Shown here one piece after another: positions 1 to 13,814 of a stretch of 13,814 nt of DNA. The DNA is from a virus: the UHGV virus genome UHGV-1801311. One strand, given 5' to 3'. How positions within the stretch are numbered: the first letter of the stretch is position 1; each line of letters opens with the position of its first letter. A model generated the notes under the pieces. The model did no database searches, was not told the origin of the DNA, and saw only the letters and a list, made by a program, of their open reading frames with translations. A program made the position numbers and the translations under genes.

Positions 1-28
1 GGCAGCGTCAGATGTGTATAAGAGACAG
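1..28 (+). other. Illumina Nextera read-1 transposase adapter remnant ending in the 19-bp Tn5 mosaic end (10-28, AGATGTGTATAAGAGACAG)
   Basis: Direct read: GGCAGCGTCAGATGTGTATAAGAGACAG matches the 3' 28 nt of the Nextera read-1 adapter (TCGTCGGCAGCGTCAGATGTGTATAAGAGACAG). It abuts phage coding sequence mid-gene. Confidence 0.9.
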
Positions 29-29
29 C

Positions 30-446
30 TTTATGGGGCGGCGAAAATTCGTCGCATCCCGTCAGGCGAGCCAGATGTTTCTGTGCTGGCTGGAAGAGGC
101 CATCGTTCGCCGCGTGGTGACGTTACCTTCAAAAGCGCGCTTCAGTTTTCAGGAAGCCCGCAGTGCCTGGGGGAACTGTGACTGGATAGGCTCCGGTCGT
201 ATGGCCATCGATGGTCTGAAAGAAGTTCAGGAAGCGGTGATGCTGATAGAAGCCGGACTGAGCACCTACGAGAAAGAGTGCGCAAAACGCGGCGACGACT
301 ATCAGGAAATTTTTGCCCAGCAGGTCCGTGAAACGATGGAGCGCCGTGCAGCCGGTCTTAAACCGCCCGCCTGGGCGGCTGCGGCATTTGAATCCGGGCT
401 GCGACAATCAACAGAGGAGGAGAAGAGTGACAGCAGAGCTGCGTAA
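30..446 (+). CDS. B: Portal protein gpB, C-terminal fragment (5' truncated by contig end/adapter)
   Basis: ORF frame 12..446 ends ...GLRQSTEEEKSDSRAA*, recognised as the lambda portal protein C-terminus. No start codon is expected because the gene is cut by the adapter. Stop TAA at 444-446. Confidence 0.8.
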   Translation, partial: FMGRRKFVASRQASQMFLCWLEEAIVRRVVTLPSKARFSFQEARSAWGNCDWIGSGRMAIDGLKEVQEAVMLIEAGLSTYEKECAKRGDDYQEIFAQQVRETMERRAAGLKPPAWAAAAFESGLRQSTEEEKSDSRAA

Positions 447-1746
447 TCTCCCGCATATTGCCAGCATGGCTTTTAATGAGCCGCTGATGCTTGAACCCGC
501 CTATGCGCGGGTTTTCTTTTGTGCGCTTGCAGGCCAGCTTGGGATCAGCCGCCTGACGGATGCAGTATCCGGCGACAGCCTGACTGCCGGAGAGGCACCC
601 GCGGCGCTGGCGTTATCCGGTGATGATGACGGACCACGACAGGCCCGCAGTTATCAGGTCATGAACGGCATCGCCGTGCTGCCGGTGTCCGGCACGCTGG
701 TCAGCCGGACGCGGGCGCTGCAGCCGTATTCGGGGATGACCGGTTACAACAGCATTATCGCCCGTCTGCAACAGGCTGCCAGCGACCCGATGGTGGACGG
801 CATTCTGCTCGATATGGACACGCCAGGCGGGATGGTGGCGGGGGCATTTGACTGCGCTGACATCATCGCCCGTGTGCGTGACATAAAACCGGTATGGGCG
901 CTGGCCAACGACATGAACTGCAGTGCAGGTCAGTTGCTTGCCAGTGCCGCCTCCCGGCGTCTGGTCACGCAGACCGCCCGGACAGGCTCCATCGGCGTCA
1001 TGATGGCTCACAGTAATTACGGCGCTGCACTGGAGAAACAGGGCGTGGAAATCACGCTGATTTACAGCGGCAGCCATAAGGTGGATGGCAACCCCTACAG
1101 CCATCTACCGGGTGATGTCCGGGAGACACTGCAGTCCCGGATGGATGCAACCCGCCGGATGTTTGCGCAGAAGGTGTCGGCATATACCGGCCTGTCCGTG
1201 CAGGCTGTGCTGGATACCGAGGCTGCAGTGTACAGCGGTCAGGAGGCCATTGATGCCGGACTGGCTGATGAACTTGTTAACAGTACCGATGCGATCACCG
1301 TCATGCGTGATGCACTGGATGCACGTAAATCCCGTCTCTCAGGAGGGCGAATGACCAAAGAGACTCAATCAACAACTGTTTCAGCCACTGCTTCGCAGGC
1401 TGACGTTACTGACGTGGTGCCAGCGACGGAGGGCGAAAACGCCAGCGCGGCGCAGCCGGACGTGAACGCGCAGATCACCGCTGCGGTTGCGGCAGAAAAC
1501 AGCCGCATTATGGGGATCCTCAACTGTGAGGAGGCTCACGGACGCGAAGAACAGGCACGCGTGCTGGCCGAAACCCCCGGTATGACCGTGGAAACGGCCC
1601 GCCGCATTCTGGCCGCAGCACCACAGAGTGCACAGGCGCGCAGTGACACTGCGCTGGATCGTCTGATGCAGGGGGCACCGGCACCGCTGGCTGCAGGTAA
1701 CCCGGCATCTGATGCCGTTAACGATTTGCTGAACACACCAGTGTAA
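427..1746 (+). CDS. C: Head maturation protease / minor capsid protein gpC (S49 / ClpP-like peptidase family), 439 aa
   Basis: Translation from GTG at 427 gives TAELRNLPHIASMAFNEPLMLEP..., the lambda gpC N-terminus. RBS GAGGAGGAG at about 413-421. Overlaps the end of B by 20 nt as in lambda. Length is exactly 1320 nt. The six-frame ORF from 313 is an upstream read-through into B. Confidence 0.9.
   Translation: MTAELRNLPHIASMAFNEPLMLEPAYARVFFCALAGQLGISRLTDAVSGDSLTAGEAPAALALSGDDDGPRQARSYQVMNGIAVLPVSGTLVSRTRALQPYSGMTGYNSIIARLQQAASDPMVDGILLDMDTPGGMVAGAFDCADIIARVRDIKPVWALANDMNCSAGQLLASAASRRLVTQTARTGSIGVMMAHSNYGAALEKQGVEITLIYSGSHKVDGNPYSHLPGDVRETLQSRMDATRRMFAQKVSAYTGLSVQAVLDTEAAVYSGQEAIDAGLADELVNSTDAITVMRDALDARKSRLSGGRMTKETQSTTVSATASQADVTDVVPATEGENASAAQPDVNAQITAAVAAENSRIMGILNCEEAHGREEQARVLAETPGMTVETARRILAAAPQSAQARSDTALDRLMQGAPAPLAAGNPASDAVNDLLNTPV
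1141..1746 (+). CDS. Nu3: Scaffolding protein Nu3, in-frame internal initiation within C (201 aa)
   Basis: ATG at 1141 (MDATRRMFAQKVSAYTG...) is in the C frame, 606 nt before the shared stop, matching the known lambda C/Nu3 nested arrangement. Confidence 0.75.
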   Translation: MDATRRMFAQKVSAYTGLSVQAVLDTEAAVYSGQEAIDAGLADELVNSTDAITVMRDALDARKSRLSGGRMTKETQSTTVSATASQADVTDVVPATEGENASAAQPDVNAQITAAVAAENSRIMGILNCEEAHGREEQARVLAETPGMTVETARRILAAAPQSAQARSDTALDRLMQGAPAPLAAGNPASDAVNDLLNTPV

Positions 1747-1755
1747 GGGATGTTT

Positions 1756-2088
1756 ATGACGAGCAAAGAAACCTTTACCCATTACCAGCCGCTGGGCAAC
1801 AGTGACCCGGCTCATACCGCAACCGCGCCCGGCGGATTGAGTGCGAAAGCGCCTGCAATGACCCCGCTGATGCTGGACACCTCCACCCGTAAGCTGGTTG
1901 CGTGGGATGGCACCACCGACGGTGCTGCCGTTGGCATTCTTGCGGTTGCTGCTGACCAGACCAGCACCACACTGACGTTCTACAAGTCCGGCACGTTCCG
2001 TTATGAGGATGTGCTCTGGCCGGAGGCTGCCAGCGACGAGACGAAAAAACGGACCGCGTTTGCCGGAACGGCAATCAGCATCGTTTAA
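1756..2088 (+). CDS. D: Head decoration protein gpD, 110 aa
   Basis: [27 protein letters not shown]...TAISIV is recognised as lambda gpD. Start chosen at the second ATG (1756) with AGGGA RBS 5 nt upstream; the ORF-track start at 1750 adds two residues. Confidence 0.9.
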
Positions 2089-2108
2089 CCTGACCCTTCA
2101 TCACTAAA

Positions 2109-2130
2109 GGCCGCCTGTGCGGCTTTTTTT
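2109..2130 (+). terminator. Weak terminator-like hairpin (GCCGC-CTGT-GCGGC) followed by a run of 7 T, between D and E
   Basis: Direct read: 5-bp GC stem at 2110-2114 / 2119-2123, then TTTTTTT at 2124-2130. The stem is short, so it may be an attenuator or mRNA-stability element rather than an efficient terminator. Confidence 0.35.
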
Positions 2131-2143
2131 ACGGGATTTTTTT

Positions 2144-3169
2144 ATGTCGATGTACACAACCGCCCAGCTGCTGGCGGCAAATGAGCAGAAATTTAAGTTT
2201 GATCCGCTGTTTCTGCGTCTCTTTTTCCGTGAGAGCTATCCCTTCACCACGGAGAAAGTCTATCTCTCACAAATTCCGGGACTGGTAAACATGGCGCTGT
2301 ACGTTTCGCCGATTGTTTCCGGTGAGGTTATCCGCTCCCGTGGCGGCTCCACCTCTGAATTTACGCCGGGATATGTCAAACCCAAGCATGAGGTGAATCC
2401 GCAGATGACCCTGCGTCGCCTGCCGGATGAAGATCCGCAGAATCTGGCGGACCCGGCTTACCGCCGCCGTCGCATCATCCTGCAGAACATGCGAGACGAA
2501 GAGCTGGCCATTGCTCAGGTCGAAGAGATGCAGGCCGTTTCTGCCGTGCTTAAGGGCAAATACACCATGACCGGTGAAGCCTTCGATCCGGTTGAGGTGG
2601 ATATGGGCCGCAGTGAAGCGAATAACATCACGCAGTCCGGCGGCACGGAGTGGAGCAAGCGTGACAAGTCCACGTATGACCCGACCGACGATATCGAAGC
2701 CTACGCGCTGAACGCCAGCGGTGTGGTGAATATCATCGTGTTTGATCCGAAAGGCTGGGCGCTGTTCCGTTCCTTCAAAGCCGTCAGGGAGAAGCTGGAT
2801 ACCCGTCGCGGCTCTCATTCCGAGCTGGAGACAGCGGTAAAAGACCTGGGCAAAGCGGTGTCCTATAAGGGAATGTATGGCGATGTGGCCATCGTCGTGT
2901 ATTCCGGACAGTACGTGGAAAACGGCGTCAAAAAGAACTTCCTGCCGGACAACACGATGGTGCTGGGGAACACTCAGGCACGCGGTCTGCGCACCTATGG
3001 CTGCATTCAGGATGCGGACGCACAGCGCGAAGGCATTAACGCCTCTGCCCGTTACCCGAAAAACTGGGTGACCACCGGCGATCCGGCGCGTGAGTTCACC
3101 ATGATTCAGTCAGCACCGCTGATGCTGCTGGCTGACCCTGATGAGTTCGTTTCCGTACAACTGGCGTAA
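2144..3169 (+). CDS. E: Major capsid protein gpE (HK97 fold), 341 aa
   Basis: MSMYTTAQLLAANEQKFKFDPLFLRLFFRESYPFT...EFVSVQLA is recognised as lambda gpE. Start at ATG 2144 (the ORF-track start at 2117 is an upstream in-frame extension). Length 1026 nt matches lambda E. Confidence 0.92.
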   Translation: MSMYTTAQLLAANEQKFKFDPLFLRLFFRESYPFTTEKVYLSQIPGLVNMALYVSPIVSGEVIRSRGGSTSEFTPGYVKPKHEVNPQMTLRRLPDEDPQNLADPAYRRRRIILQNMRDEELAIAQVEEMQAVSAVLKGKYTMTGEAFDPVEVDMGRSEANNITQSGGTEWSKRDKSTYDPTDDIEAYALNASGVVNIIVFDPKGWALFRSFKAVREKLDTRRGSHSELETAVKDLGKAVSYKGMYGDVAIVVYSGQYVENGVKKNFLPDNTMVLGNTQARGLRTYGCIQDADAQREGINASARYPKNWVTTGDPAREFTMIQSAPLMLLADPDEFVSVQLA

Positions 3170-3172
3170 TCG

Positions 3173-3198
3173 TGGCCCTTCGGGGCCATTTTCTCTCT
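3173..3198 (+). terminator. Stable hairpin with a UUCG tetraloop (TGGCCC-TTCG-GGGCCA) followed by a T-rich tract, just after the E stop codon
   Basis: Direct read: perfect 6-bp stem at 3173-3178 / 3183-3188 with TTCG loop, followed by ATTTTCTCTCT. Sits between the most highly expressed capsid gene and FI. Confidence 0.45.
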
Positions 3199-3210
3199 GT
3201 GGAGGAGTCC

Positions 3211-3606
3211 ATGACGAAAGATGAACTGATTGCCCGTCTTCAGGTGCTGGGTGAGCAACTGAACCGTGATGTCAGCCTGACGGGGACGAAAGAAGAACTG
3301 GCGCTCCGTGTGGCAGAGCTGGAAGAGGAGCTTGATGACACGGATGACGCAGCCGGTCAGGACACGTCTGTCAGCCCGGAAAATGCACTGACCGGACATG
3401 AAAATGAGGTGGTATCAGCACAGACGGATACCGTGACTGATACGGCTGCTCTGGTCACGGTTGTGGCACTGGTGACGCTGCATACTGATGCACTTCACGC
3501 CACGCGGGATGAGGCTGTGGCATTTGTGCTGCCGGGAACGGCGTTCCGTGTCTCTGCCGGTGTGGCAGCTGAAATGACAGAGCGCGGCCTGGCCAGAATG
3601 CAATAA
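3211..3606 (+). CDS. FI: DNA-packaging / head assembly protein gpFI, 131 aa
   Basis: MTKDELIARLQVLGEQLNRDVSLTGTKEELALRVAELEEEL... is recognised as lambda gpFI. RBS GGAGGAG at 3201-3207. The ORF-track start at 3172 is an upstream extension through the hairpin. Confidence 0.85.
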   Translation: MTKDELIARLQVLGEQLNRDVSLTGTKEELALRVAELEEELDDTDDAAGQDTSVSPENALTGHENEVVSAQTDTVTDTAALVTVVALVTLHTDALHATRDEAVAFVLPGTAFRVSAGVAAEMTERGLARMQ

Positions 3607-3617
3607 CGGGAGGCGCT

Positions 3618-3971
3618 GTGGCTGATTTCGATAACCTGTTCGATGCTGCCATTGCCCGCGCCGATGAAACGATACGCGGGTACATGGGAACGTCAGCCAC
3701 CATGACATCCGGTGAGCAGTCCGGCGCAGTAATACGTGGTGTTTTTGATGACCCTGAAAATATCAGCTATGCCGGACAGGGCGTGCGCGTTGAAGGCTCC
3801 AGCCCGTCCCTGTTTGTCCGGACTGATGATGTGCGGCAGCTGCGGCGCGGCGACACGCTGACCATCGGTGAGGAAAACTTCTGGATAGACCGGATTTCGC
3901 CGGATGATGGCGGAAGCTGTCATCTCTGGCTTGGGCGGGGCGTACCGCCTGCCGTTAACCGTCGCCGCTGA
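3618..3971 (+). CDS. FII: Head-tail connector / head completion protein gpFII, 117 aa
   Basis: GTG start at 3618 with GGGAGG RBS at 3607-3612. MADFDNLFDAAIARADETIRGYMG... is recognised as lambda gpFII; length matches. Confidence 0.88.
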   Translation: MADFDNLFDAAIARADETIRGYMGTSATMTSGEQSGAVIRGVFDDPENISYAGQGVRVEGSSPSLFVRTDDVRQLRRGDTLTIGEENFWIDRISPDDGGSCHLWLGRGVPPAVNRRR

Positions 3972-3982
3972 AAGGGGGATGT

Positions 3983-4561
3983 ATGGCCATAAAAGGTCTT
4001 GAGCAGGCCGTTGAAAACCTCAGCCGTATCAGCAGAACGGCGGTGCCCGGTGCCGCCGCAATGGCCATTAACCGCGTTGCTTCATCCGCGATATCGCAGT
4101 CGGCGTCACAGGTTGCCCGTGAGACAAAGGTACGCCGGAAACTGGTAAAGGAAAGGGCCAGGCTGAAAAGGGCCACGGTCAAAAATCCGCAGGCCAGAAT
4201 CAAAGTTAACCGGGGGGATTTGCCCGTAATAAAGCTGGGTAACGCGCGGATTGTCCTGTCCCGACGCAGGCGTCGTAAAAAGGGGCAGCGTTCATCCCTG
4301 AAAGGTGGCGGCAGCGTGCTTGTGGTGGGAAACCGTCGTATTCCCGGCGCGTTTATTCAGCAACTGAAAAATGGCCGGTGGCATGTCATGCAGCGTGTGG
4401 CCGGGAAAAACCGTTACCCCATTGATGTGGTGAAAATCCCGATGGCGGTGCCGCTGACCACGGCGTTTAAACAAAATATTGAGCGGATACGGCGTGAACG
4501 TCTTCCGAAAGAGCTGGGCTATGCGCTGCAGCATCAACTGAGGATGGTAATAAAGCGATGA
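3983..4561 (+). CDS. Z: Minor tail protein gpZ (tail completion), 192 aa
   Basis: MAIKGLEQAVENLSRISRTAVPGAAAMAINRV... is recognised as lambda gpZ. RBS AAAGGGGGA upstream of ATG 3983. Length matches. Confidence 0.9.
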   Translation: MAIKGLEQAVENLSRISRTAVPGAAAMAINRVASSAISQSASQVARETKVRRKLVKERARLKRATVKNPQARIKVNRGDLPVIKLGNARIVLSRRRRRKKGQRSSLKGGGSVLVVGNRRIPGAFIQQLKNGRWHVMQRVAGKNRYPIDVVKIPMAVPLTTAFKQNIERIRRERLPKELGYALQHQLRMVIKR

Positions 4562-4953
4562 AACATACTGAACTCCGTGCAGCCGTACTGGATGCACTGG
4601 AGAAGCATGACACCGGGGCGACGTTTTTTGATGGTCGCCCCGCTGTTTTTGATGAGGCGGATTTTCCGGCAGTTGCCGTTTATCTCACCGGCGCTGAATA
4701 CACGGGCGAAGAGCTGGACAGCGATACCTGGCAGGCGGAGCTGCATATCGAAGTTTTCCTGCCTGCTCAGGTGCCGGATTCAGAGCTGGATTCGTGGATG
4801 GAGTCCCGGATTTATCCGGTGATGAGCGATATCCCGGCACTGTCAGATTTGATCACCAGTATGGTGGCCAGTGGCTATGACTACCGGCGCGACGATGATG
4901 CGGGCCTGTGGAGTTCAGCCGATCTGACTTATGTCATTACCTATGAAATGTGA
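4558..4953 (+). CDS. U: Tail terminator protein gpU, 131 aa
   Basis: [33 protein letters not shown]... is recognised as lambda gpU. ATGA start/stop overlap with Z (translational coupling). Confidence 0.9.
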
Positions 4954-4960
4954 GGACGAT

Positions 4961-5701
4961 ATGCCAACACCAAATCCTCTGGCACCGGTGAAAGGGGCCG
5001 GGACCACACTGTGGGTTTATAAGGGGAGCGGTGACCCTTATGCGAATCCGCTTTCAGACGTTGACTGGTCGCGTCTGGCAAAAGTTAAAGACCTGACGCC
5101 CGGCGAACTGACCGCTGAGTCCTATGACGACAGCTATCTCGATGATGAAGATGCAGACTGGACTGCGACCGGGCAGGGGCAGAAATCTGCCGGAGATACC
5201 AGCTTCACGCTGGCGTGGATGCCCGGAGAGCAGGGGCAGCAGGCGCTGCTGGCGTGGTTTAATGAAGGTGATACCCGTGCCTATAAAATCCGCTTCCCGA
5301 ACGGCACGGTCGATGTGTTCCGCGGCTGGGTCAGCAGTATCGGTAAGGCGGTGACGGCGAAGGAAGTGATCACCCGCACGGTGAAAGTCACCAATGTGGG
5401 ACGTCCGTCGATGGCAGAAGATCGCAGCACGGTAACAGCGGCAACCGGCATGACCGTGACGCCTGCCAGCACCTCGGTGGTGAAAGGGCAGAGCACCACG
5501 CTGACCGTGGCCTTCCAGCCGGAGGGCGTAACCGACAAGAGCTTTCGTGCGGTGTCTGCGGATAAAACAAAAGCCACCGTGTCGGTCAGTGGTATGACCA
5601 TCACCGTGAAAGGTGTTGCTGCAGGCAAGGTCAACATTCCGGTCGTATCCGGTAATGGTGAACTTGCTGCGGTTGCAGAAATCAACGTCACCGCCAGTTA
5701 A
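4961..5701 (+). CDS. V: Major tail tube protein gpV with C-terminal Ig-like (Big_2-type) domain, 246 aa
   Basis: [37 protein letters not shown]... is recognised as lambda gpV. Start at ATG 4961 with GAGGA RBS; the ORF-track start at 4931 overlaps the end of U. C-terminal [25 protein letters not shown]... is an Ig-like repeat. Confidence 0.9.
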
Positions 5702-5716
5702 TCCGGAGAGTCAGCG

Positions 5717-6139
5717 ATGTTCCTGAAAACCGAATCATTTGAACATAACGGTGTGACCGTCACGCTTTCTGAACTGTCAGCCCTGCAGCGTATTGAGCAT
5801 CTCGCCCTGATGAAACGGCAGGCAGAACAGGCGGAGTCAGACAGCAACCGGAAGTTTACTGTGGAAGACGCCATCAGAACCGGCGCGTTTCTGGTGGCGA
5901 TGTCCCTGTGGCATAACCATCCGCAGAAGACAAAGCTGCCTTCCATGAATGAAGCCGTTAAACAGATTGAGCAGGAAGTGCTTACCACCTGGCCCACGGA
6001 GGCAATTTCTCATGCTGAAAACGTGGTGTACCGGCTGTCCGGTATGTATGAGTTTGTGGTGAATGATGCTCCTGAACAGACAGAGGACGCCGGGCCTGCA
6101 GAGCCTGTTTCTGCGGGAAAGTGTTCGACGGTGAGCTGA
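5717..6139 (+). CDS. G: Tail assembly chaperone gpG, 140 aa
   Basis: MFLKTESFEHNGVTVTLSELSALQRIEHLALMKRQAEQ...SAGKCSTVS* is recognised as lambda gpG. RBS GGAGAG upstream. Confidence 0.9.
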   Translation: MFLKTESFEHNGVTVTLSELSALQRIEHLALMKRQAEQAESDSNRKFTVEDAIRTGAFLVAMSLWHNHPQKTKLPSMNEAVKQIEQEVLTTWPTEAISHAENVVYRLSGMYEFVVNDAPEQTEDAGPAEPVSAGKCSTVS

Positions 6140-6555
6140 GTTTTGCCCTGAAACTGGCGCGCGAGATGGGGCGACCCGACTGGCGTGCCATGCTTGCCGG
6201 GATGTCATCCACGGAGTATGCCGACTGGCACCGCTTTTACAGTACCCATTATTTTCATGATGTTCTGCTGGATATGCACTTTTCCGGGCTGACGTACACC
6301 GTGCTCAGCCTGTTTTTCAGCGATCCGGATATGCATCCGCTGGATTTCAGTCTGCTGAACCGGCGCGAGGCTGACGAAGAGCCTGAAGATGATGTGCTGA
6401 TGCAGAAAGCGGCAGGGCTTGCCGGAGGTGTCCGCTTTGGCCCGGACGGGAATGAAGTTATCCCCGCTTCCCCGGATGTGGCGGACATGACGGAGGATGA
6501 CGTAATGCTGATGACAGTATCAGAAGGGATCGCAGGAGGAGTCCGGTATGGCTGA
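5717..6555 (+). CDS. GT: Tail assembly chaperone gpGT, made by -1 programmed ribosomal frameshift from G into the T frame at the slippery site 6115-6121
   Basis: The T frame (6121..6555) has no independent start or RBS. It overlaps the 3' end of G and follows the slippery heptamer G GGA AAG positioned exactly as in lambda. The T frame ends at TGA 6553-6555, overlapping the H start. Confidence 0.8.
6115..6121 (+). promoter_or_regulatory. Slippery heptanucleotide GGGAAAG for the G/GT -1 programmed ribosomal frameshift
   Basis: Direct read: in the G frame the codons are G GGA AAG (Gly-Lys, codons 134-135), 6 codons before the G stop. Shifting -1 enters the T ORF. Confidence 0.85.
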
Positions 6556-9109
6556 ACCGGTAGGCGATCTGGTCGTTGATTTAAGTCTGGATGCGGCCAG
6601 ATTTGACGAGCAGATGGCCAGAGTCAGGCGTCATTTTTCCGGTACGGAAACTGATGCGAAAAAAACAGCGGCAGTCGTTGAACAGTCGCTGAGCCGACAG
6701 GCGCTGGCTGCACAGAAAGCGGGGATTTCCGTCGGGCAGTATAAAGCCGCCATGCGTATGCTGCCTGCACAGTTCACCGACGTGGCCACGCAGCTTGCAG
6801 GCGGGCAAAGTCCGTGGCTGATCCTGCTGCAACAGGGTGGTCAGGTTAAGGACTCCTTCGGCGGGATGATCCCCATGTTCAGGGGGCTTGCCGGTGCGAT
6901 CACCCTGCCGATGGTGGGGGCCACCTCGCTGGCGGTGGCGACCGGTGCGCTGGCGTATGCCTGGTATCAGGGCAACTCAACCCTGTCCGATTTCAACAAA
7001 ACGCTGGTCCTTTCCGGCAATCAGGCGGGACTGACGGCAGATCGTATGCTGGTCCTGTCCAGAGCCGGGCAGGCGGCAGGGCTGACGTTTAACCAGACCA
7101 GCGAGTCACTGACGGCGCTGGTGAATGCCGGTGTGCGTGGTGGTGAGCAGTTTGAGGCGATCAGCCAGAGTGTGGCGCGTTTCTCCTCTGCATCCGGCGT
7201 GGAGGTGGACAAGGTCGCTGAAGCCTTCGGGAAGCTGACCACAGACCCGACGTCGGGGCTGACGGCGATGGCACGCCAGTTCCATAACGTGACGGCGGAG
7301 CAGATTGCGTATGTTGCTCAGTTGCAGCGTTCCGGCGATGAAGCCGGGGCATTGCAGGCGGCGAACGAGGCCGCAACGAAAGGGTTTGATGACCAGACCC
7401 GCCGCCTGAAAGAGAACATGGGCACGCTGGAGACCTGGGCAGACAGGACAGCGCGGGCATTCAAATCCATGTGGGATGCGGTGCTGGATATTGGTCGTCC
7501 TGATACCGCGCAGGAGATGCTGATTAAGGCAGAGGCTGCGTTTAAGAAAGCAGACGACATCTGGAATCTGCGCAAGGATGATTATTTTGTTAACGATGAA
7601 GCGCGGGCGCGTTACTGGGATGATCGTGAAAAGGCCCGTCTTGCGCTTGAAGCCGCCCGAAAGAAGGCTGAGCAGCAGACTCAACAGGACAAAAATGCGC
7701 AGCAGCAGAGCGATACCGAAGCGTCACGGCTGAAATATACCGAAGAGGCGCAGAAGGCTTACGAACGGCTGCAGACGCCGCTGGAGAAATATACCGCCCG
7801 TCAGGAAGAACTGAACAAGGCACTGAAAGACGGGAAAATCCTGCAGGCAGATTACAACACGCTGATGGCGGCGGCGAAAAAGGATTATGAAGCGACGCTG
7901 AAAAAGCCGAAACAGTCCGGCGTGAAGGTGTCTGCGGGCGATCGTCAGGAAGACAGTGCTCATGCTGCCCTGCTGACGCTTCAGGCAGAACTCCGGACGC
8001 TGGAGAAGCATGCCGGAGCAAATGAGAAAATCAGCCAGCAGCGCCGGGATTTGTGGAAGGCGGAGAGTCAGTTCGCGGTACTGGAGGAGGCGGCGCAACG
8101 TCGCCAGCTGTCTGCACAGGAGAAATCCCTGCTGGCGCATAAAGATGAGACGCTGGAGTACAAACGCCAGCTGGCTGCACTTGGCGACAAGGTTACGTAT
8201 CAGGAGCGCCTGAACGCGCTGGCGCAGCAGGCGGATAAATTCGCACAGCAGCAACGGGCAAAACGGGCCGCCATTGATGCGAAAAGCCGGGGGCTGACTG
8301 ACCGGCAGGCAGAACGGGAAGCCACGGAACAGCGCCTGAAGGAACAGTATGGCGATAATCCGCTGGCGCTGAATAACGTCATGTCAGAGCAGAAAAAGAC
8401 CTGGGCGGCTGAAGACCAGCTTCGCGGGAACTGGATGGCAGGCCTGAAGTCCGGCTGGAGTGAGTGGGAAGAGAGCGCCACGGACAGTATGTCGCAGGTT
8501 AAAAGTGCTGCCACGCAGACCTTTGATGGTATTGCGCAGAATATGGCGGCGATGCTGACCGGCAGTGAGCAGAACTGGCGCAGCTTCACCCGTTCCGTGC
8601 TGTCCATGATGACAGAAATTCTGCTTAAGCAGGCAATGGTGGGGATTGTCGGGAGTATCGGCAGCGCCATTGGCGGGGCTGTTGGTGGCGGCGCATCCGC
8701 GTCAGGCGGTACAGCCATTCAGGCCGCTGCGGCGAAATTCCATTTTGCAACCGGAGGATTTACGGGAACCGGCGGCAAATATGAGCCAGCGGGGATTGTT
8801 CACCGTGGTGAGTTTGTCTTCACGAAGGAGGCAACCAGCCGGATTGGCGTGGGGAATCTTTACCGGCTGATGCGCGGCTATGCCACCGGCGGTTATGTCG
8901 GTACACCGGGCAGCATGGCAGACAGCCGGTCGCAGGCGTCCGGGACGTTTGAGCAGAATAACCATGTGGTGATTAACAACGACGGCACGAACGGGCAGAT
9001 AGGTCCGGCTGCTCTGAAGGCGGTGTATGACATGGCCCGCAAGGGTGCCCGTGATGAAATTCAGACACAGATGCGTGATGGTGGCCTGTTCTCCGGAGGT
9101 GGACGATGA
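6548..9109 (+). CDS. H: Tail tape-measure protein gpH, 853 aa
   Basis: MAEPVGDLVVDLSLDAARFDEQMARVRRHF... is recognised as lambda gpH. Has a long Ala/Gln/Lys/Glu-rich helical middle and a Gly-rich C-terminal segment (GIVGSIGSAIGGAVGGGASASGG...). Length matches lambda H. Confidence 0.92.
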   Translation: MAEPVGDLVVDLSLDAARFDEQMARVRRHFSGTETDAKKTAAVVEQSLSRQALAAQKAGISVGQYKAAMRMLPAQFTDVATQLAGGQSPWLILLQQGGQVKDSFGGMIPMFRGLAGAITLPMVGATSLAVATGALAYAWYQGNSTLSDFNKTLVLSGNQAGLTADRMLVLSRAGQAAGLTFNQTSESLTALVNAGVRGGEQFEAISQSVARFSSASGVEVDKVAEAFGKLTTDPTSGLTAMARQFHNVTAEQIAYVAQLQRSGDEAGALQAANEAATKGFDDQTRRLKENMGTLETWADRTARAFKSMWDAVLDIGRPDTAQEMLIKAEAAFKKADDIWNLRKDDYFVNDEARARYWDDREKARLALEAARKKAEQQTQQDKNAQQQSDTEASRLKYTEEAQKAYERLQTPLEKYTARQEELNKALKDGKILQADYNTLMAAAKKDYEATLKKPKQSGVKVSAGDRQEDSAHAALLTLQAELRTLEKHAGANEKISQQRRDLWKAESQFAVLEEAAQRRQLSAQEKSLLAHKDETLEYKRQLAALGDKVTYQERLNALAQQADKFAQQQRAKRAAIDAKSRGLTDRQAEREATEQRLKEQYGDNPLALNNVMSEQKKTWAAEDQLRGNWMAGLKSGWSEWEESATDSMSQVKSAATQTFDGIAQNMAAMLTGSEQNWRSFTRSVLSMMTEILLKQAMVGIVGSIGSAIGGAVGGGASASGGTAIQAAAAKFHFATGGFTGTGGKYEPAGIVHRGEFVFTKEATSRIGVGNLYRLMRGYATGGYVGTPGSMADSRSQASGTFEQNNHVVINNDGTNGQIGPAALKAVYDMARKGARDEIQTQMRDGGLFSGGGR

Positions 9110-9435
9110 AGACCTTCCGCTGGAAAGTGAAACCCGGTATGGATGTGGCTTCGGTCCCTTCTGTAAGAAAGGTGCGCTTTGGTGATGGCTATTCTCAGCG
9201 AGCGCCTGCCGGGCTGAATGCCAACCTGAAAACGTACAGCGTGACGCTTTCTGTCCCCCGTGAGGAGGCCACGGCGCTGGAGTCGTTTCTGGCTGAGCAC
9301 GGGGGCTGGAAAGCCTTTCTGTGGACGCCGCCTTATGAGTGGCGGCAGATAAAGGTGACCTGCGCAAAATGGTCGTCGCGGGTCAGTATGCTGCGTGTTG
9401 AGTTCAGCGCAGAGTTTGAACAGGTGGTGAACTGA
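9106..9435 (+). CDS. M: Minor tail protein gpM (tail tip), 109 aa
   Basis: MKTFRWKVKPGMDVASVPSVRKVRFGDGYSQRAPAGLNANLKTYS... is recognised as lambda gpM. ATGA overlap with the H stop. Confidence 0.9.
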   Translation: MKTFRWKVKPGMDVASVPSVRKVRFGDGYSQRAPAGLNANLKTYSVTLSVPREEATALESFLAEHGGWKAFLWTPPYEWRQIKVTCAKWSSRVSMLRVEFSAEFEQVVN

Positions 9436-10133
9436 TGCAGGATATCCGGCAGGAAACACTGAATGAATGCACCCGTGCGGAGCAGTCGGCCAGCGTGGTG
9501 CTCTGGGAAATCGACCTGACAGAGGTCGGTGGAGAACGTTATTTTTTCTGTAATGAGCAGAACGAAAAAGGTGAGCCGGTCACCTGGCAGGGGCGACAGT
9601 ATCAGCCGTATCCCATTCAGGGGAGTGGTTTTGAACTGAATGGCAAAGGCACCAGTACGCGCCCCACGCTGACGGTTTCTAACCTGTACGGTATGGTCAC
9701 CGGGATGGCGGAAGATCTGCAGAGTCTGGTCGGTGGAACGGTGGTCCGGCGTAAGGTTTACGCCCGTTTTCTGGATGCGGTGAACTTCGTCAACGGAAAC
9801 AGAGACGCCGATTCGGAGCAGGAGGTGATCAGCCGCTGGCGCATTGAGCAGTGCAGCGAACTGAGCGCGGTGAGTGCCTCCTTTGTACTGTCCACGCCGA
9901 CGGAAACGGATGGCGCTGTTTTTCCGGGACGTATCATGCTGGCCAACACCTGCACCTGGACCTATCGCGGCGATGAGTGCGGTTATAGCGGTCCGGCGGT
10001 CGCGGATGAATATGACCAGCCGACGTCCGATATCACGAAGGATAAATGCAGCAAATGCCTGAGCGGTTGTAAGTTCCGCAATAACGTCGGCAACTTTGGC
10101 GGCTTCCTTTCCATTAACAAACTTTCGCAGTAA
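9435..10133 (+). CDS. L: Minor tail protein gpL (tail tip, Cys-rich C-terminus), 232 aa
   Basis: MQDIRQETLNECTRAEQSASVVLWEIDLTEVGGERYFFCNEQ... is recognised as lambda gpL. Stop TGA of M overlaps ATG 9435. C-terminal Cys cluster (CTWTYRGDECGY...CSKCLSGC). Confidence 0.9.
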   Translation: MQDIRQETLNECTRAEQSASVVLWEIDLTEVGGERYFFCNEQNEKGEPVTWQGRQYQPYPIQGSGFELNGKGTSTRPTLTVSNLYGMVTGMAEDLQSLVGGTVVRRKVYARFLDAVNFVNGNRDADSEQEVISRWRIEQCSELSAVSASFVLSTPTETDGAVFPGRIMLANTCTWTYRGDECGYSGPAVADEYDQPTSDITKDKCSKCLSGCKFRNNVGNFGGFLSINKLSQ

Positions 10134-10137
10134 TCCC

Positions 10138-10881
10138 ATGACAGAGACAGAATCAGCGATTCTGGCGCACGCCCGGCGATGTGCGCCAGCGGAGTCGTGC
10201 GGCTTCGTGGTGAGAACACCGGAGGGGGAAAGATATTTTCCCTGCGTGAATATCTCCGGTGAGCCGGAGGCGTATTTCCGGATGTCGCCGGAGGACTGGC
10301 TGCGGGCAGAGATGCAGGGTGAGATTGTGGCGCTGGTCCACAGCCACCCCGGTGGTCTGCCCTGGCTGAGTGAGGCTGACCGGCGGCTGCAGGTGCAGAG
10401 TGATTTGCCGTGGTGGCTGGTCTGCCGGGGGACGATTCATAAGTTCCGCTGTGTGCCGCATCTCACCGGGCGGCGCTTTGAGCACGGGGTGACGGACTGT
10501 TACACGCTGTTCCGGGATGCTTATCATCTGGCGGGGATTGAGATGCCGGATTTTCATCGCGGGGATGACTGGTGGCGTCACGGCCAGAATCTCTATCTGG
10601 ATAATCTGGAGGCCACAGGGCTGTATCAGGTGCCGTTGTCATCAGCACAACCGGGCGATGTGCTGCTGTGCTGTTTTGGTTCATCGGTGCCGAATCATGC
10701 CGCCATTTACTGTGGTGACGGTGAGCTGCTGCACCATATTCCTGAACAACTGAGCAAACGAGAGAGGTATACCGACAAATGGCAGCGACGCACACACTCC
10801 CTCTGGCGTCACCGGGCATGGCGCGCATCTGCCTTTACGGGGATTTACAACGATTTGGTCGCCGCATCGACCTTCGTGTGA
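10138..10881 (+). CDS. K: Tail tip assembly protein gpK, JAB/MPN metalloprotease-like plus NlpC/P60 domain. Extended N-terminus; the classical lambda start corresponds to ATG 10282.
   Basis: The region matching the 199-aa lambda K annotation begins MSPEDWLRAEMQGEIVALVHSHPGG at 10282. The same frame is open upstream to ATG 10138 (MTETESAILAHARRCAPAESCGFVVRTPEGERYFPC...), which supplies the Glu-containing N-terminal half of a JAB/MPN domain ahead of the HSHPGG...SEAD metal-binding motif. The 3' end overlaps I by 103 nt. Confidence 0.8.
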   Translation: MTETESAILAHARRCAPAESCGFVVRTPEGERYFPCVNISGEPEAYFRMSPEDWLRAEMQGEIVALVHSHPGGLPWLSEADRRLQVQSDLPWWLVCRGTIHKFRCVPHLTGRRFEHGVTDCYTLFRDAYHLAGIEMPDFHRGDDWWRHGQNLYLDNLEATGLYQVPLSSAQPGDVLLCCFGSSVPNHAAIYCGDGELLHHIPEQLSKRERYTDKWQRRTHSLWRHRAWRASAFTGIYNDLVAASTFV

Positions 10882-11450
10882 AAACGGGGGCTGAAGCCAT
10901 CCGGGCACTGGCCACACAGCTCCCGGCGTTTCGTCAGAAACTGAGCGACGGCTGGTATCAGGTACGGATTGCCGGGCGGGACGTCAGCACGTCCGGGTTA
11001 ACGGCGCAGTTACATGAGACTCTGCCTGATGGCGCTGTGATTCATATTGTTCCCAGAGTCGCCGGGGCCAAGTCAGGTGGCGTATTCCAGATTGTCCTGG
11101 GGGCTGCCGCCATTGCCGGATCATTCTTTACCGCCGGAGCCACCCTTGCAGCATGGGGGGCAGCCATTGGGGCCGGTGGTATGACCGGCATCCTGTTTTC
11201 TCTCGGTGCCAGTATGGTGCTCGGTGGTGTGGCGCAGATGCTGGCACCGAAAGCCAGAACTCCCCGTACACAGACAACGGATAACGGCAAACAGAACACC
11301 TATTTCTCCTCACTGGATAACATGGTTGCCCAGGGCAATGTTCTGCCGGTTCTGTACGGTGAAATGCGCGTGGGGTCACGCGTGGTTTCTCAGGAGATCA
11401 GCACGGCAGACGAAGGGGATGGTGGTCAGGTTGTGGTGATTGGTCGCTGA
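10779..11450 (+). CDS. I: Tail tip assembly protein gpI (ubiquitin-like N-terminal domain, Gly/Ala-rich hydrophobic C-terminal half), 223 aa
   Basis: MAATHTLPLASPGMARICLYGDLQRFGRRIDLRVKTGAEAIRAL... is recognised as lambda gpI. Overlaps K in a different frame exactly as in lambda. Confidence 0.9.
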   Translation: MAATHTLPLASPGMARICLYGDLQRFGRRIDLRVKTGAEAIRALATQLPAFRQKLSDGWYQVRIAGRDVSTSGLTAQLHETLPDGAVIHIVPRVAGAKSGGVFQIVLGAAAIAGSFFTAGATLAAWGAAIGAGGMTGILFSLGASMVLGGVAQMLAPKARTPRTQTTDNGKQNTYFSSLDNMVAQGNVLPVLYGEMRVGSRVVSQEISTADEGDGGQVVVIGR

Positions 11451-11468
11451 TGCAAAATGTTTTATGTG

Positions 11469-11497
11469 AAACCGCCTGCGGGCGGTTTTGTCGTTTA
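11469..11497 (+). terminator. Terminator-like hairpin (AAACCGCC-loop-GGCGGTTT) followed by a T-rich tract, between I and J
   Basis: Direct read: 8-bp stem at 11469-11476 / 11482-11489 with a 5-nt loop, then TTTTGTCGTTT. Lies in the 60-nt I-J intergenic gap upstream of the J RBS (GGAG at 11499-11502). Confidence 0.45.
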
Positions 11498-11510
11498 TGG
11501 AGCGTGAGGA

Positions 11511-12931
11511 ATGGGTAAAGGCAGCAGTAAGGGGCATACCCCGCGCGAAGCGAAGGACAACCTGAAGTCCACGCAGTTGCTGAGTGTGATCGATGCCATC
11601 AGCGAAGGGCCGGTTGAAGGTCCGGTGGATGGATTAAAAAGCGTGCTGCTGAACAGTACGCCGGTGCTGGACAGTGAGGGGAATACCAATATATCCGGCG
11701 TCACGGTGGTGTTCCGGGCCGGTGAGCAGGAGCAGACACCGCCGGAGGGATTTGAATCCTCCGGCTCCGAGACGGTGCTGGGTACGGAAGTGAAATACGA
11801 CACGCCGATCACCCGGACCATCACGTCGGCAAACATTGACCGACTGCGTTTTACCTTCGGCGTGCAGGCACTGGTGGAAACCACCTCAAAGGGGGACAGG
11901 AATCCGTCGGAAGTCCGCCTGCTGGTTCAGATCCAGCGTAATGGTGGCTGGGTGACGGAAAAAGACATCACCATTAAGGGCAAAACCACCTCGCAGTATC
12001 TGGCCTCGGTGGTGGTGGATAACCTGCCGCCGCGCCCGTTCAATATCCGGATGCGCAGGATGACGCCGGACAGCACCACAGACCAGCTGCAGAACAAAAC
12101 GCTCTGGTCGTCATACACCGAAATCATCGATGTGAAACAGTGCTACCCGAACACGGCACTGGTCGGCGTGCAGGTGGATTCGGAGCAGTTCGGCAGCCAG
12201 CAGGTGAGCCGTAATTATCATCTGCGCGGGCGCATTCTGCAGGTGCCGTCGAACTATAACCCGCAGACGCGGCAATACAGCGGTATCTGGGACGGAACGT
12301 TTAAACCGGCATACAGCAACAACATGGCCTGGTGTCTGTGGGATATGCTGACCCATCCGCGCTACGGCATGGGGAAACGTCTTGGTGCGGCGGATGTGGA
12401 TAAATGGGCGCTGTATGTCATCGGCCAGTACTGCGACCAGTCAGTGCCGGACGGCTTTGGCGGCACGGAGCCGCGCATCACCTGTAATGCGTACCTGACC
12501 ACACAGCGCAAGGCGTGGGATGTGCTCAGTGATTTCTGCTCGGCGATGCGCTGTATGCCGGTATGGAACGGGCAGACGCTGACGTTCGTGCAGGACCGAC
12601 CATCAGATAAGGTGTGGACCTATAACCGCAGTAATGTGGTGATGCCGGATGATGGCGCGCCGTTCCGCTACAGCTTCAGCGCCCTGAAGGACCGCCATAA
12701 TGCCGTTGAGGTGAACTGGATTGACCCGAATAACGGCTGGGAGACGGCGACAGAGCTTGTGGAGGACACGCAGGCCATTGCCCGTTACGGTCGTAACGTC
12801 ACGAAGATGGATGCCTTTGGCTGTACCAGCCGGGGGCAGGCACACCGCGCCGGGCTGTGGCTGATTAAAACGGAACTGCTGGAAACGCAGACCGTGGACT
12901 TCAGCGTGGGCGCAGAAGGGCTTCGCCATGT
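11511..12931 (+). CDS. J: Tail tip / central tail fibre protein gpJ, N-terminal ~473 codons only (3' truncated at a chimeric junction)
   Basis: MGKGSSKGHTPREAKDNLKSTQLLSVIDAISEGPVEGPVDGLKSVLLNSTPVLD... is recognised as the lambda gpJ N-terminus and stays J-like through ...TVDFSVGAEGLRH. After about 12931 the frame reads Gly/Arg/Ala/His-rich low-complexity sequence and the DNA is non-phage. Full-length J is 1132 aa. Confidence 0.85.
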
Positions 12932-13050
12932 GCACGCATGCGCTGGTGCTGGCGAAGGGCAAAGTGGTGGCGTTCGACGAGAAGGACGCGTTCGATTTCG
13001 ACGAGTTCTCGACGCTGTATCGCTCGACGGTTGGCATGGGGGTGGCGTAG
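12929..13050 (+). CDS. C-terminal fragment (about 40 codons) of an ABC-transporter ATP-binding protein, plausibly CcmA-like; 5' truncated at the junction
   Basis: Frame +2 reads ...CTHALVLAKGKVVAFDEKDAFDFDEFSTLYRSTVGMGVA* with stop TAG at 13048-13050 immediately before the CcmB-like ATG. This is a typical ABC-ATPase C-terminal tail. Assignment is by position and motif only. Confidence 0.4.
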
Positions 13051-13767
13051 ATGGCGGTCGAGCTAAAGAAGCCCTCGACCTTCCAGCAGTACAAGACGCT
13101 GCTGCGCAAGGACTTGGAGCAGGAGTTCCGCACGAAGGAGATGCTCACGTCCATGGGCATCTACGCGCTTTTGGTGATCATCGTGTACGGGGCGGCGCTG
13201 GCGCAGACCTCGCAGACCACCGACGTGCTGCAGATGAGCGGCGGCCTTCTGTGGGCGCTCATCGTGTTCACGTCGCTTTTGGGCCTGAACCGCTCGTTCG
13301 CGCACGAGAAGGAGCAGGGCTGCATGGAGGGCATCCTGCTGGTGCCGATGGACCGTTCGGTGGTGTTCCTGGCGAAATCGACGTCGAACCTGCTGTTCTT
13401 GCTGGTGGTGGAAGTGATCGCCGTGCCGCTGTTCTACTTCTTCTTCCTGACCACCACCACGCCGTCCGAGAGCTTCTGGCTGCTCGTGGTGCCGCTGCTC
13501 GTGGGCACCGTCGGCGTGGCGGGCATCGGCACGCTGCTGTCCACCATCACCATCAACACGCGCGGCAAGGACGTGATGTTGGCCGTGCTGTTCATCCCGC
13601 TGATCTTTCCGCTGCTGTACGCATGCGTGTCCGCGACGACGGCGGTCATCGTGGGCGCGGAAGGATATGCGGACATCATGCTGACGTCGTTGGCGCTTGC
13701 GGGCGGCTACGACGTGATCATGATCCTCGCATCGTGGGTTCTGTACGATTTCGTGATTAGCGCTTGA
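13051..13767 (+). CDS. ccmB: CcmB-like heme exporter permease (cytochrome c maturation ABC transporter membrane subunit), 238 aa
   Basis: About six hydrophobic segments and an FAHEKEQGCMEGILLVP motif resembling the conserved FxxExExG...E.L region of CcmB. Higher GC with G/C-rich third codon positions, unlike the phage region. ATG follows the upstream stop directly (operon-like). Product call is by motif recognition, not alignment. Confidence 0.6.
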   Translation: MAVELKKPSTFQQYKTLLRKDLEQEFRTKEMLTSMGIYALLVIIVYGAALAQTSQTTDVLQMSGGLLWALIVFTSLLGLNRSFAHEKEQGCMEGILLVPMDRSVVFLAKSTSNLLFLLVVEVIAVPLFYFFFLTTTTPSESFWLLVVPLLVGTVGVAGIGTLLSTITINTRGKDVMLAVLFIPLIFPLLYACVSATTAVIVGAEGYADIMLTSLALAGGYDVIMILASWVLYDFVISA

Positions 13768-13768
13768 T

Positions 13769-13796
13769 GTTCCGTCGGCCTGCCGGCCGACGGAAC
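13769..13796. repeat. Perfect 12-bp inverted repeat (GTTCCGTCGGCC-TGCC-GGCCGACGGAAC) immediately after the ccmB-like stop
   Basis: Direct read: the arms at 13769-13780 and 13785-13796 are exact reverse complements. No downstream T-tract is visible within the window (only 18 nt remain). Confidence 0.7.
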
Positions 13797-13814
13797 TGCT
13801 CGATGCTGCGAGGC

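Follow-up and report, generated by a model that had tools for sequence, protein, structure and literature searches.

The window analysed here, a stretch of 13,814 nt, opens in the middle of a lambda-type portal gene, and the 28 bases that stand before the phage DNA raise the question of whether they belong to the phage or to the library from which it was sequenced. The original prediction held that they are the 3′ end of the Nextera read-1 adapter with its complete 19-bp mosaic end, that phage sequence begins directly afterwards inside gene B, and that the arrangement is a library-preparation artefact. Exact-protein look-ups identified the window as the complete contig NODE_1148_length_13814_cov_5.509412 of ENA analysis ERZ652080 (locus L094 is identical), with a coverage of ~5.5. 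Since no part of the contig lies outside the window, the adapter stands at a true contig end, and it does so in a thinly covered assembly. The contig name has the format of SPAdes or metaSPAdes. The features on which the argument depends are the following:

1–9, plus strand: adapter-specific bases GGCAGCGTC, positions 6–14 of the oligo, outside the mosaic end (oligo match).
10–28, plus strand: synthetic 19-nt Tn5 mosaic end AGATGTGTATAAGAGACAG, whose 3′ end abuts the phage DNA (exact match).
12–446, plus strand: spurious 144-aa ORF, in which an ATG and five adapter codons (MCIRDS) run in frame into the final 138 codons of B (ORF list).
29–446, plus strand: 3′ fragment of a lambda-type portal gene B, consisting of codon 395 (third base only), codons 396–533 and the stop at 444–446 (homology).
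29–12933, plus strand: structural module of a lambdoid E. coli prophage, B′ C Nu3 D E FI FII Z U V G T H M L K I and ~474 codons of J (homology and gene calls).
11511–13760, plus strand: spurious 749-aa ORF, consisting of 474 N-terminal residues of the tail tip protein J followed by out-of-frame ccmA/ccmB (ORF list and public gene call).
12912–12933, plus strand: chimeric junction, with 20 nt (GCAGAAGGGCTTCGCCATGT, 12912–12931) common to lambda J and Eggerthellaceae ccmA (comparison).
12934–13814, plus strand: foreign Eggerthellaceae (Gordonibacter-like) DNA, with the ccmA 3′ end and its stop at 13050, a complete ccmB (13051–13767, 238 aa) and 47 nt downstream (identity to contigs L005 and L007).

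Bases 1–28 (GGCAGCGTCAGATGTGTATAAGAGACAG) were identical at 28 of 28 positions to positions 6–33 of the Tn5ME-A, or Nextera read-1, oligo (5′-TCGTCGGCAGCGTCAGATGTGTATAAGAGACAG-3′; Picelli et al. 2014, PMC4248319), and the predicted assignment and its coordinates proved to be exact. A text search found this 33-mer in 3,734 papers. The 19-bp mosaic end is the hyperactive end that replaces the natural OE and IE ends in vitro (PMC4248319); as had been predicted, it was complete, with 0 mismatches, and it was the sole copy in the window when both strands were searched with up to 3 mismatches. The nine bases ahead of it mark adapter A and not the interior of IS50 or of a mini-Tn5. The adapter occupies the contig terminus on the plus strand, with the 3′ end of the mosaic end facing the insert. 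The oligo identity, the terminal position and the normal gene B of native genomes together bear out the claim of a library-preparation artefact. Our data confirm that bases 1–28 are a laboratory or assembly artefact and not biology, and they indicate, with a probability of about 0.97, that these bases are an untrimmed Illumina Nextera adapter A (Tn5ME-A) in a low-coverage, metaSPAdes-style contig assembled from the reads of a tagmentation library.

A scan of IMG/VR with the same 28-mer returned at least 120 contigs (L095–L214). Among the IMG/VR matches listed, 119 of the 121 copies of the 28-mer were located no more than 58 nt from a contig end and pointed inward, and where extra bases were kept on the outward side, they were TCGTC, which completes the adapter, and the sequences of an i5 index and of P5. 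The adapter in the window has the same geometry as these copies, and there is no essential difference between it and the Illumina Nextera (Tn5ME-A) contamination seen at other contig ends. Only 28 of the 33 or more adapter bases were kept in the window, and likewise nothing was present outside the 28-mer in 5 of the 121 listed IMG/VR copies. Adapter-capped contig ends are a common and well-populated class of artefact. Many of the adapter-bearing IMG/VR contigs came from one metagenome (3300045988). One contig (L113) carried the 28-mer on both ends with the same i5 index, and in another (L098) an internal 28-mer adjoined a run of N.

The adapter may have reached the contig end in a few steps. 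Tn5 transposase would have cut the prophage DNA, and the transferred strand of adapter A would have been joined to the 5′ end of the resulting fragment, which begins at base 29. If the fragment was shorter than the read length, read 2 would have run through it into the adapter, which appears there in reverse complement as …CTGTCTCTTATACACATCTGACGCTGCC…. This stretch would have been left untrimmed, and the contig would then show it in the opposite orientation, as the reverse complement of read 2. With a coverage of ~5.5x, no reads or too few reads would have extended leftwards, and the tip of the adapter would have stayed as the end of the contig. We infer the read-through, the lack of trimming and the coverage gap at the contig start from the arrangement of the window.

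The sequence next to the adapter was compared with 50,697 phage records by megablast, of which 279 gave a match, and the best matches started at query base 29 and ended at 12931–12933. The identity to lambda and its derivatives was 97.9% over the matched region. In a direct blastn comparison, positions 4019–16925 of lambda imm434 aligned to positions 29–12931 of the window; 273 positions were mismatched, and there were two small indels. The window is like the B–J morphogenetic module of phage lambda in its gene order as well as in its nucleotide sequence, and its portal fragment is 100% identical at the protein level. A region covering at least 80% of the query was present in 2,966 of 5,426 complete E. 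coli genomes, with a best identity of 98.3%, and the E. coli alignments listed (4,724 records matched) also started at base 29. The place of the adapter is taken in lambda, in E. coli PEC131 and in the contigs L092 and L093 (4 of 4) by the native sequence GGGCCAGTGCGAACGAGTCGTGGGCGTA, which shows no relation to the adapter. Within portal gene B, base 29 falls at the third position of codon 395. The start of the listed alignments at this base, at codon 395/396, agrees with the prediction that phage DNA begins inside gene B immediately after the adapter.

The window differs from laboratory lambda by its 273 substitutions, most of which are synonymous, and by the two small indels, and no record was closer to it than 98.3–98.4%. 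Among the 259 in-gene substitutions relative to lambda, 182 were at codon position 3, and synonymous changes (175) outnumbered non-synonymous ones (84). Because of this third-position and synonymous bias, the phage part of the window is a genuine natural variant of a lambdoid prophage, and neither laboratory lambda nor noise. Laboratory lambda control DNA was considered as a source and is ruled out by the 273 substitutions together with the bias; for the same reason, the 2% divergence does not stem from sequencing noise.

The differences from lambda were clustered, with, for example, 23 in 3250–3500 (FI), 19 in 7000–7250 (H) and 16 in 10500–10750 (K). This clustering suggests either the normal mosaicism of lambdoid phages or, at a coverage of 5.5x, an assembly path that crosses several prophage haplotypes present together. 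Relative to lambda, FI carries an in-frame 3-nt deletion at ~3439 of the window. At the L/K boundary there is a 1-nt deletion at the L stop codon (gap at 10132), and L still keeps all 232 codons and ends at 10133. The call for gene K is short here (199 aa, 10282–10881), compared to 247 aa with an added JAB domain in the related contig L092.

The consequence of the adapter for gene B can be read from the ORF at 12–446. Residues 7–144 of this ORF were identical to residues 396–533 of lambda B (138 of 138), and these are the only residues of the portal protein that the window holds; a full-length portal ORF of 533 aa with its own start is not present. The gene B fragment is a truncated real gene and not a short novel protein. 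The original prediction had stated that the fragment has no start codon, which is right for the real gene B but not for the contig as assembled, where the mosaic end supplies an in-frame ATG (bases 12–14). Since this ATG is in frame with B, ORF finders give a fake complete protein of 144 aa. It begins with MCIRDS followed by FMGRRKF…, and the S codon of MCIRDS straddles the junction of adapter and phage. The in-frame position of the mosaic-end ATG relative to the truncated B is a coincidence. The public gene call on the window's contig runs from 3 to 446 (147 aa) and starts inside the adapter, and the 144-aa version has been called as a gene on another public contig (L010). Public gene calls therefore already hold adapter-encoded residues, and the earlier warning that it would be wrong to annotate the B fragment as a short novel protein is concretely justified. 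The ORF had no match in Pfam, including none to a portal domain, so the fragment could pass for a small novel protein. A literature search found no report of MCIRDS as a known fake peptide.

The contig L010 (k141_118203 of ENA analysis ERZ27294962, 688 nt) bears on whether the junction arose once. It starts with a bare 19-nt mosaic end joined to the same nucleotide of B, it has no context upstream of the mosaic end, and the fake protein of 144 aa that it encodes is identical to that of the window. Over the 669 nt of its phage part it shows 17 differences from the window, the first of them at 118 nt, with the first 117 nt identical. The junction might form repeatedly, across independent libraries, if this position of lambdoid portal genes were a strong hot spot for Tn5 tagmentation. 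In favour of this explanation, L010 comes from another ENA analysis, another assembler (as its k141 naming indicates) and another haplotype (17/669), and yet it has an identical junction nucleotide. If L010 came from an independent sample, it would be uncomfortable to invoke chance alone, and a hot spot would have to be assumed; the junction would still be an artefact, only not a one-off. Against a hot spot stands the identity of the two contigs over the first 117 nt of phage DNA, because the same short adapter-bearing reads could then underlie both. Two lambdoid haplotypes could be present together in one sample or in sibling samples, of which ERZ652080 and ERZ27294962 would be re-assemblies. 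The median number of lambda-like regions per E. coli genome is 3, and the 5′ junction of adapter and phage had no match in the IMG/VR or JGI metagenome contigs. The reported consensus for Tn5 targets is A-GNTYWRANC-T, and we take the 9-bp target here, CTTTATGGG, to be a poor fit to it. On this evidence a hot spot is unlikely. If it were real, independent data sets would come to contain the same adapter-capped end together with one and the same spurious portal protein, 'MCIRDS…', and the phenomenon would still be technical and not biological.

A very different origin would be an in vivo insertion of Tn5, or of an engineered mini-transposon with mosaic ends, into prophage gene B, the contig having broken off within the transposon. 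Transposase can bind the mosaic end as a functional end, and as in a natural Tn5/IS50 or an EZ-Tn5-type insertion, a 19-bp transposase-binding end directly abuts the target DNA; L010, the second public contig, has its mosaic end at this nucleotide of gene B too and could also be read in this way. However, the mosaic end is derived from the laboratory and is not a natural OE or IE (PMC4248319), and the 9 nt on what would be the transposon side are the tail of adapter A (GGCAGCGTC) and not part of the IS50 transposase or of a marker cassette. Compared to an insertion by Tn5/IS50 or EZ-Tn5, the window thus has a synthetic end, an interior made of adapter tail, a single end, no 9-bp duplication and a position at the contig terminus. 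No second inverted end was detected in the window on either strand with up to 3 mismatches, a search that covers OE, and IE was also absent. The putative target CTTTATGGG occurred only once, at 29–37, so that no 9-bp target-site duplication was present in the window; the contig ends inside the putative element, and the other flank is not represented. Transposon interior was not found next to the mosaic end. Among the alignments listed, the E. coli genomes that have the module (~3,000) showed only normal B sequence at this position, and both junction contigs start at the adapter, as do 119 of the 121 listed IMG/VR copies. The original prediction had named an independent long-read assembly with a second inverted end and a 9-bp duplication as the mark of a real insertion; L010, the other public contig with the junction, shows no such arrangement and likewise begins with the mosaic end. 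In tagmentation the two adapters are separate oligos, so the reaction fragments DNA and cannot leave an integrated element. A genuine Tn5 insertion is extremely improbable and is effectively refuted. The chance occurrence of the 28-mer, or an unrelated natural sequence that resembles the adapter, can be given practically no weight, because ~4e-13 occurrences would be expected in the window, 0 of 200 shuffled sequences contained even the 19-nt mosaic end when up to 3 mismatches were allowed, and the 28-mer is absent from the native homologues compared.

Untrimmed adapter A thus remains the reading of the 5′ end. A point absent from the original prediction is that the contig is also chimeric at its 3′ end. 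Homology to lambda J stops at ~12931–12933, and two metagenome contigs of Mb scale (L005 and L007) matched positions 12912–13814 at 100% identity, with others at 98.6–99.3%. In the matching contigs the native locus reads ccmF-ccmA-ccmB-ccmC (CcmF, ABC_tran, CcmB and Cytochrom_C_asm). The ccmB product matched Pfam CcmB at 1.1e-27, and the locus has the arrangement of a CcmAB exporter, with a CcmB membrane protein beside an ABC ATPase in a ccm cluster. The closest named genomes are Eggerthellaceae, with Gordonibacter pamelaeae at 97% amino acid identity and only 88.7% nucleotide identity. By these sequence matches, the 3′ end is a false join of gene J of an E. coli lambdoid prophage to ccmA-ccmB of a gut Eggerthellaceae.

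The junction lies in the 20 nt that J and ccmA have in common. In the closest prophage haplotype (E. coli PEC131) the next codon is GTG and not GTA, which extends the shared stretch to 22 nt (GCAGAAGGGCTTCGCCATGTGC). For one phage of 48.5 kb and one genome of 3.4 Mb, about 0.3 shared 20-mers are expected by chance, and such identities are therefore unremarkable in a metagenome. The smallest default k of SPAdes is 21, and an identity of 22 nt is one (k+1)-mer at k=21. A de Bruijn graph at k=21 would be unable to separate an identical stretch of 20–22 nt and could in this way have joined the prophage J to ccmA. Since the 22 nt correspond to a (k+1)-mer at k=21, a misjoin by the assembler at low coverage is the most likely cause of the 3′ join; a PCR template-switch chimera formed at the microhomology is the alternative. 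The contig is like other inter-genome chimeras of de Bruijn graphs in that two unrelated genomes are joined through an exact repeat of 20–22 nt in a contig of low coverage. Adapter B (GTCTCGTGGGCTCGG), the TruSeq adapter, a second mosaic end, OE and IE were all absent from the window, and because no adapter is present at the 3′ junction, the join was not mediated by an adapter. The 3′ chimera is an artefact independent of the 5′ adapter. The sequence of the 3′ junction had no match in IMG/VR.

The join has also produced a fake protein. In the 749-aa ORF at 11511–13760, Pfam J domains were found only within residues 86–473, and the last ~275 residues are an out-of-frame read over the bacterial ccmA/ccmB. 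Because this ORF was called as a gene, the genuine ccmB was left uncalled on the public contig.

The value of these findings is limited to data hygiene and quality control. The adapter adds a fake start and six fake N-terminal codons to a truncated portal gene, and both fake proteins have already been called as genes in a public protein and contig collection. The contig can be cleaned by trimming 1–28, splitting or trimming at ~12931 (to keep ~29–12931) and dropping the two fake ORFs. As it stands, the contig would mislead work on the host range of phages and on the receptor-binding diversity of J, claims about auxiliary metabolic genes (a "phage-encoded heme exporter"), and the linkage of phage to host, where an E. 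coli phage would be tied to the Eggerthellaceae.
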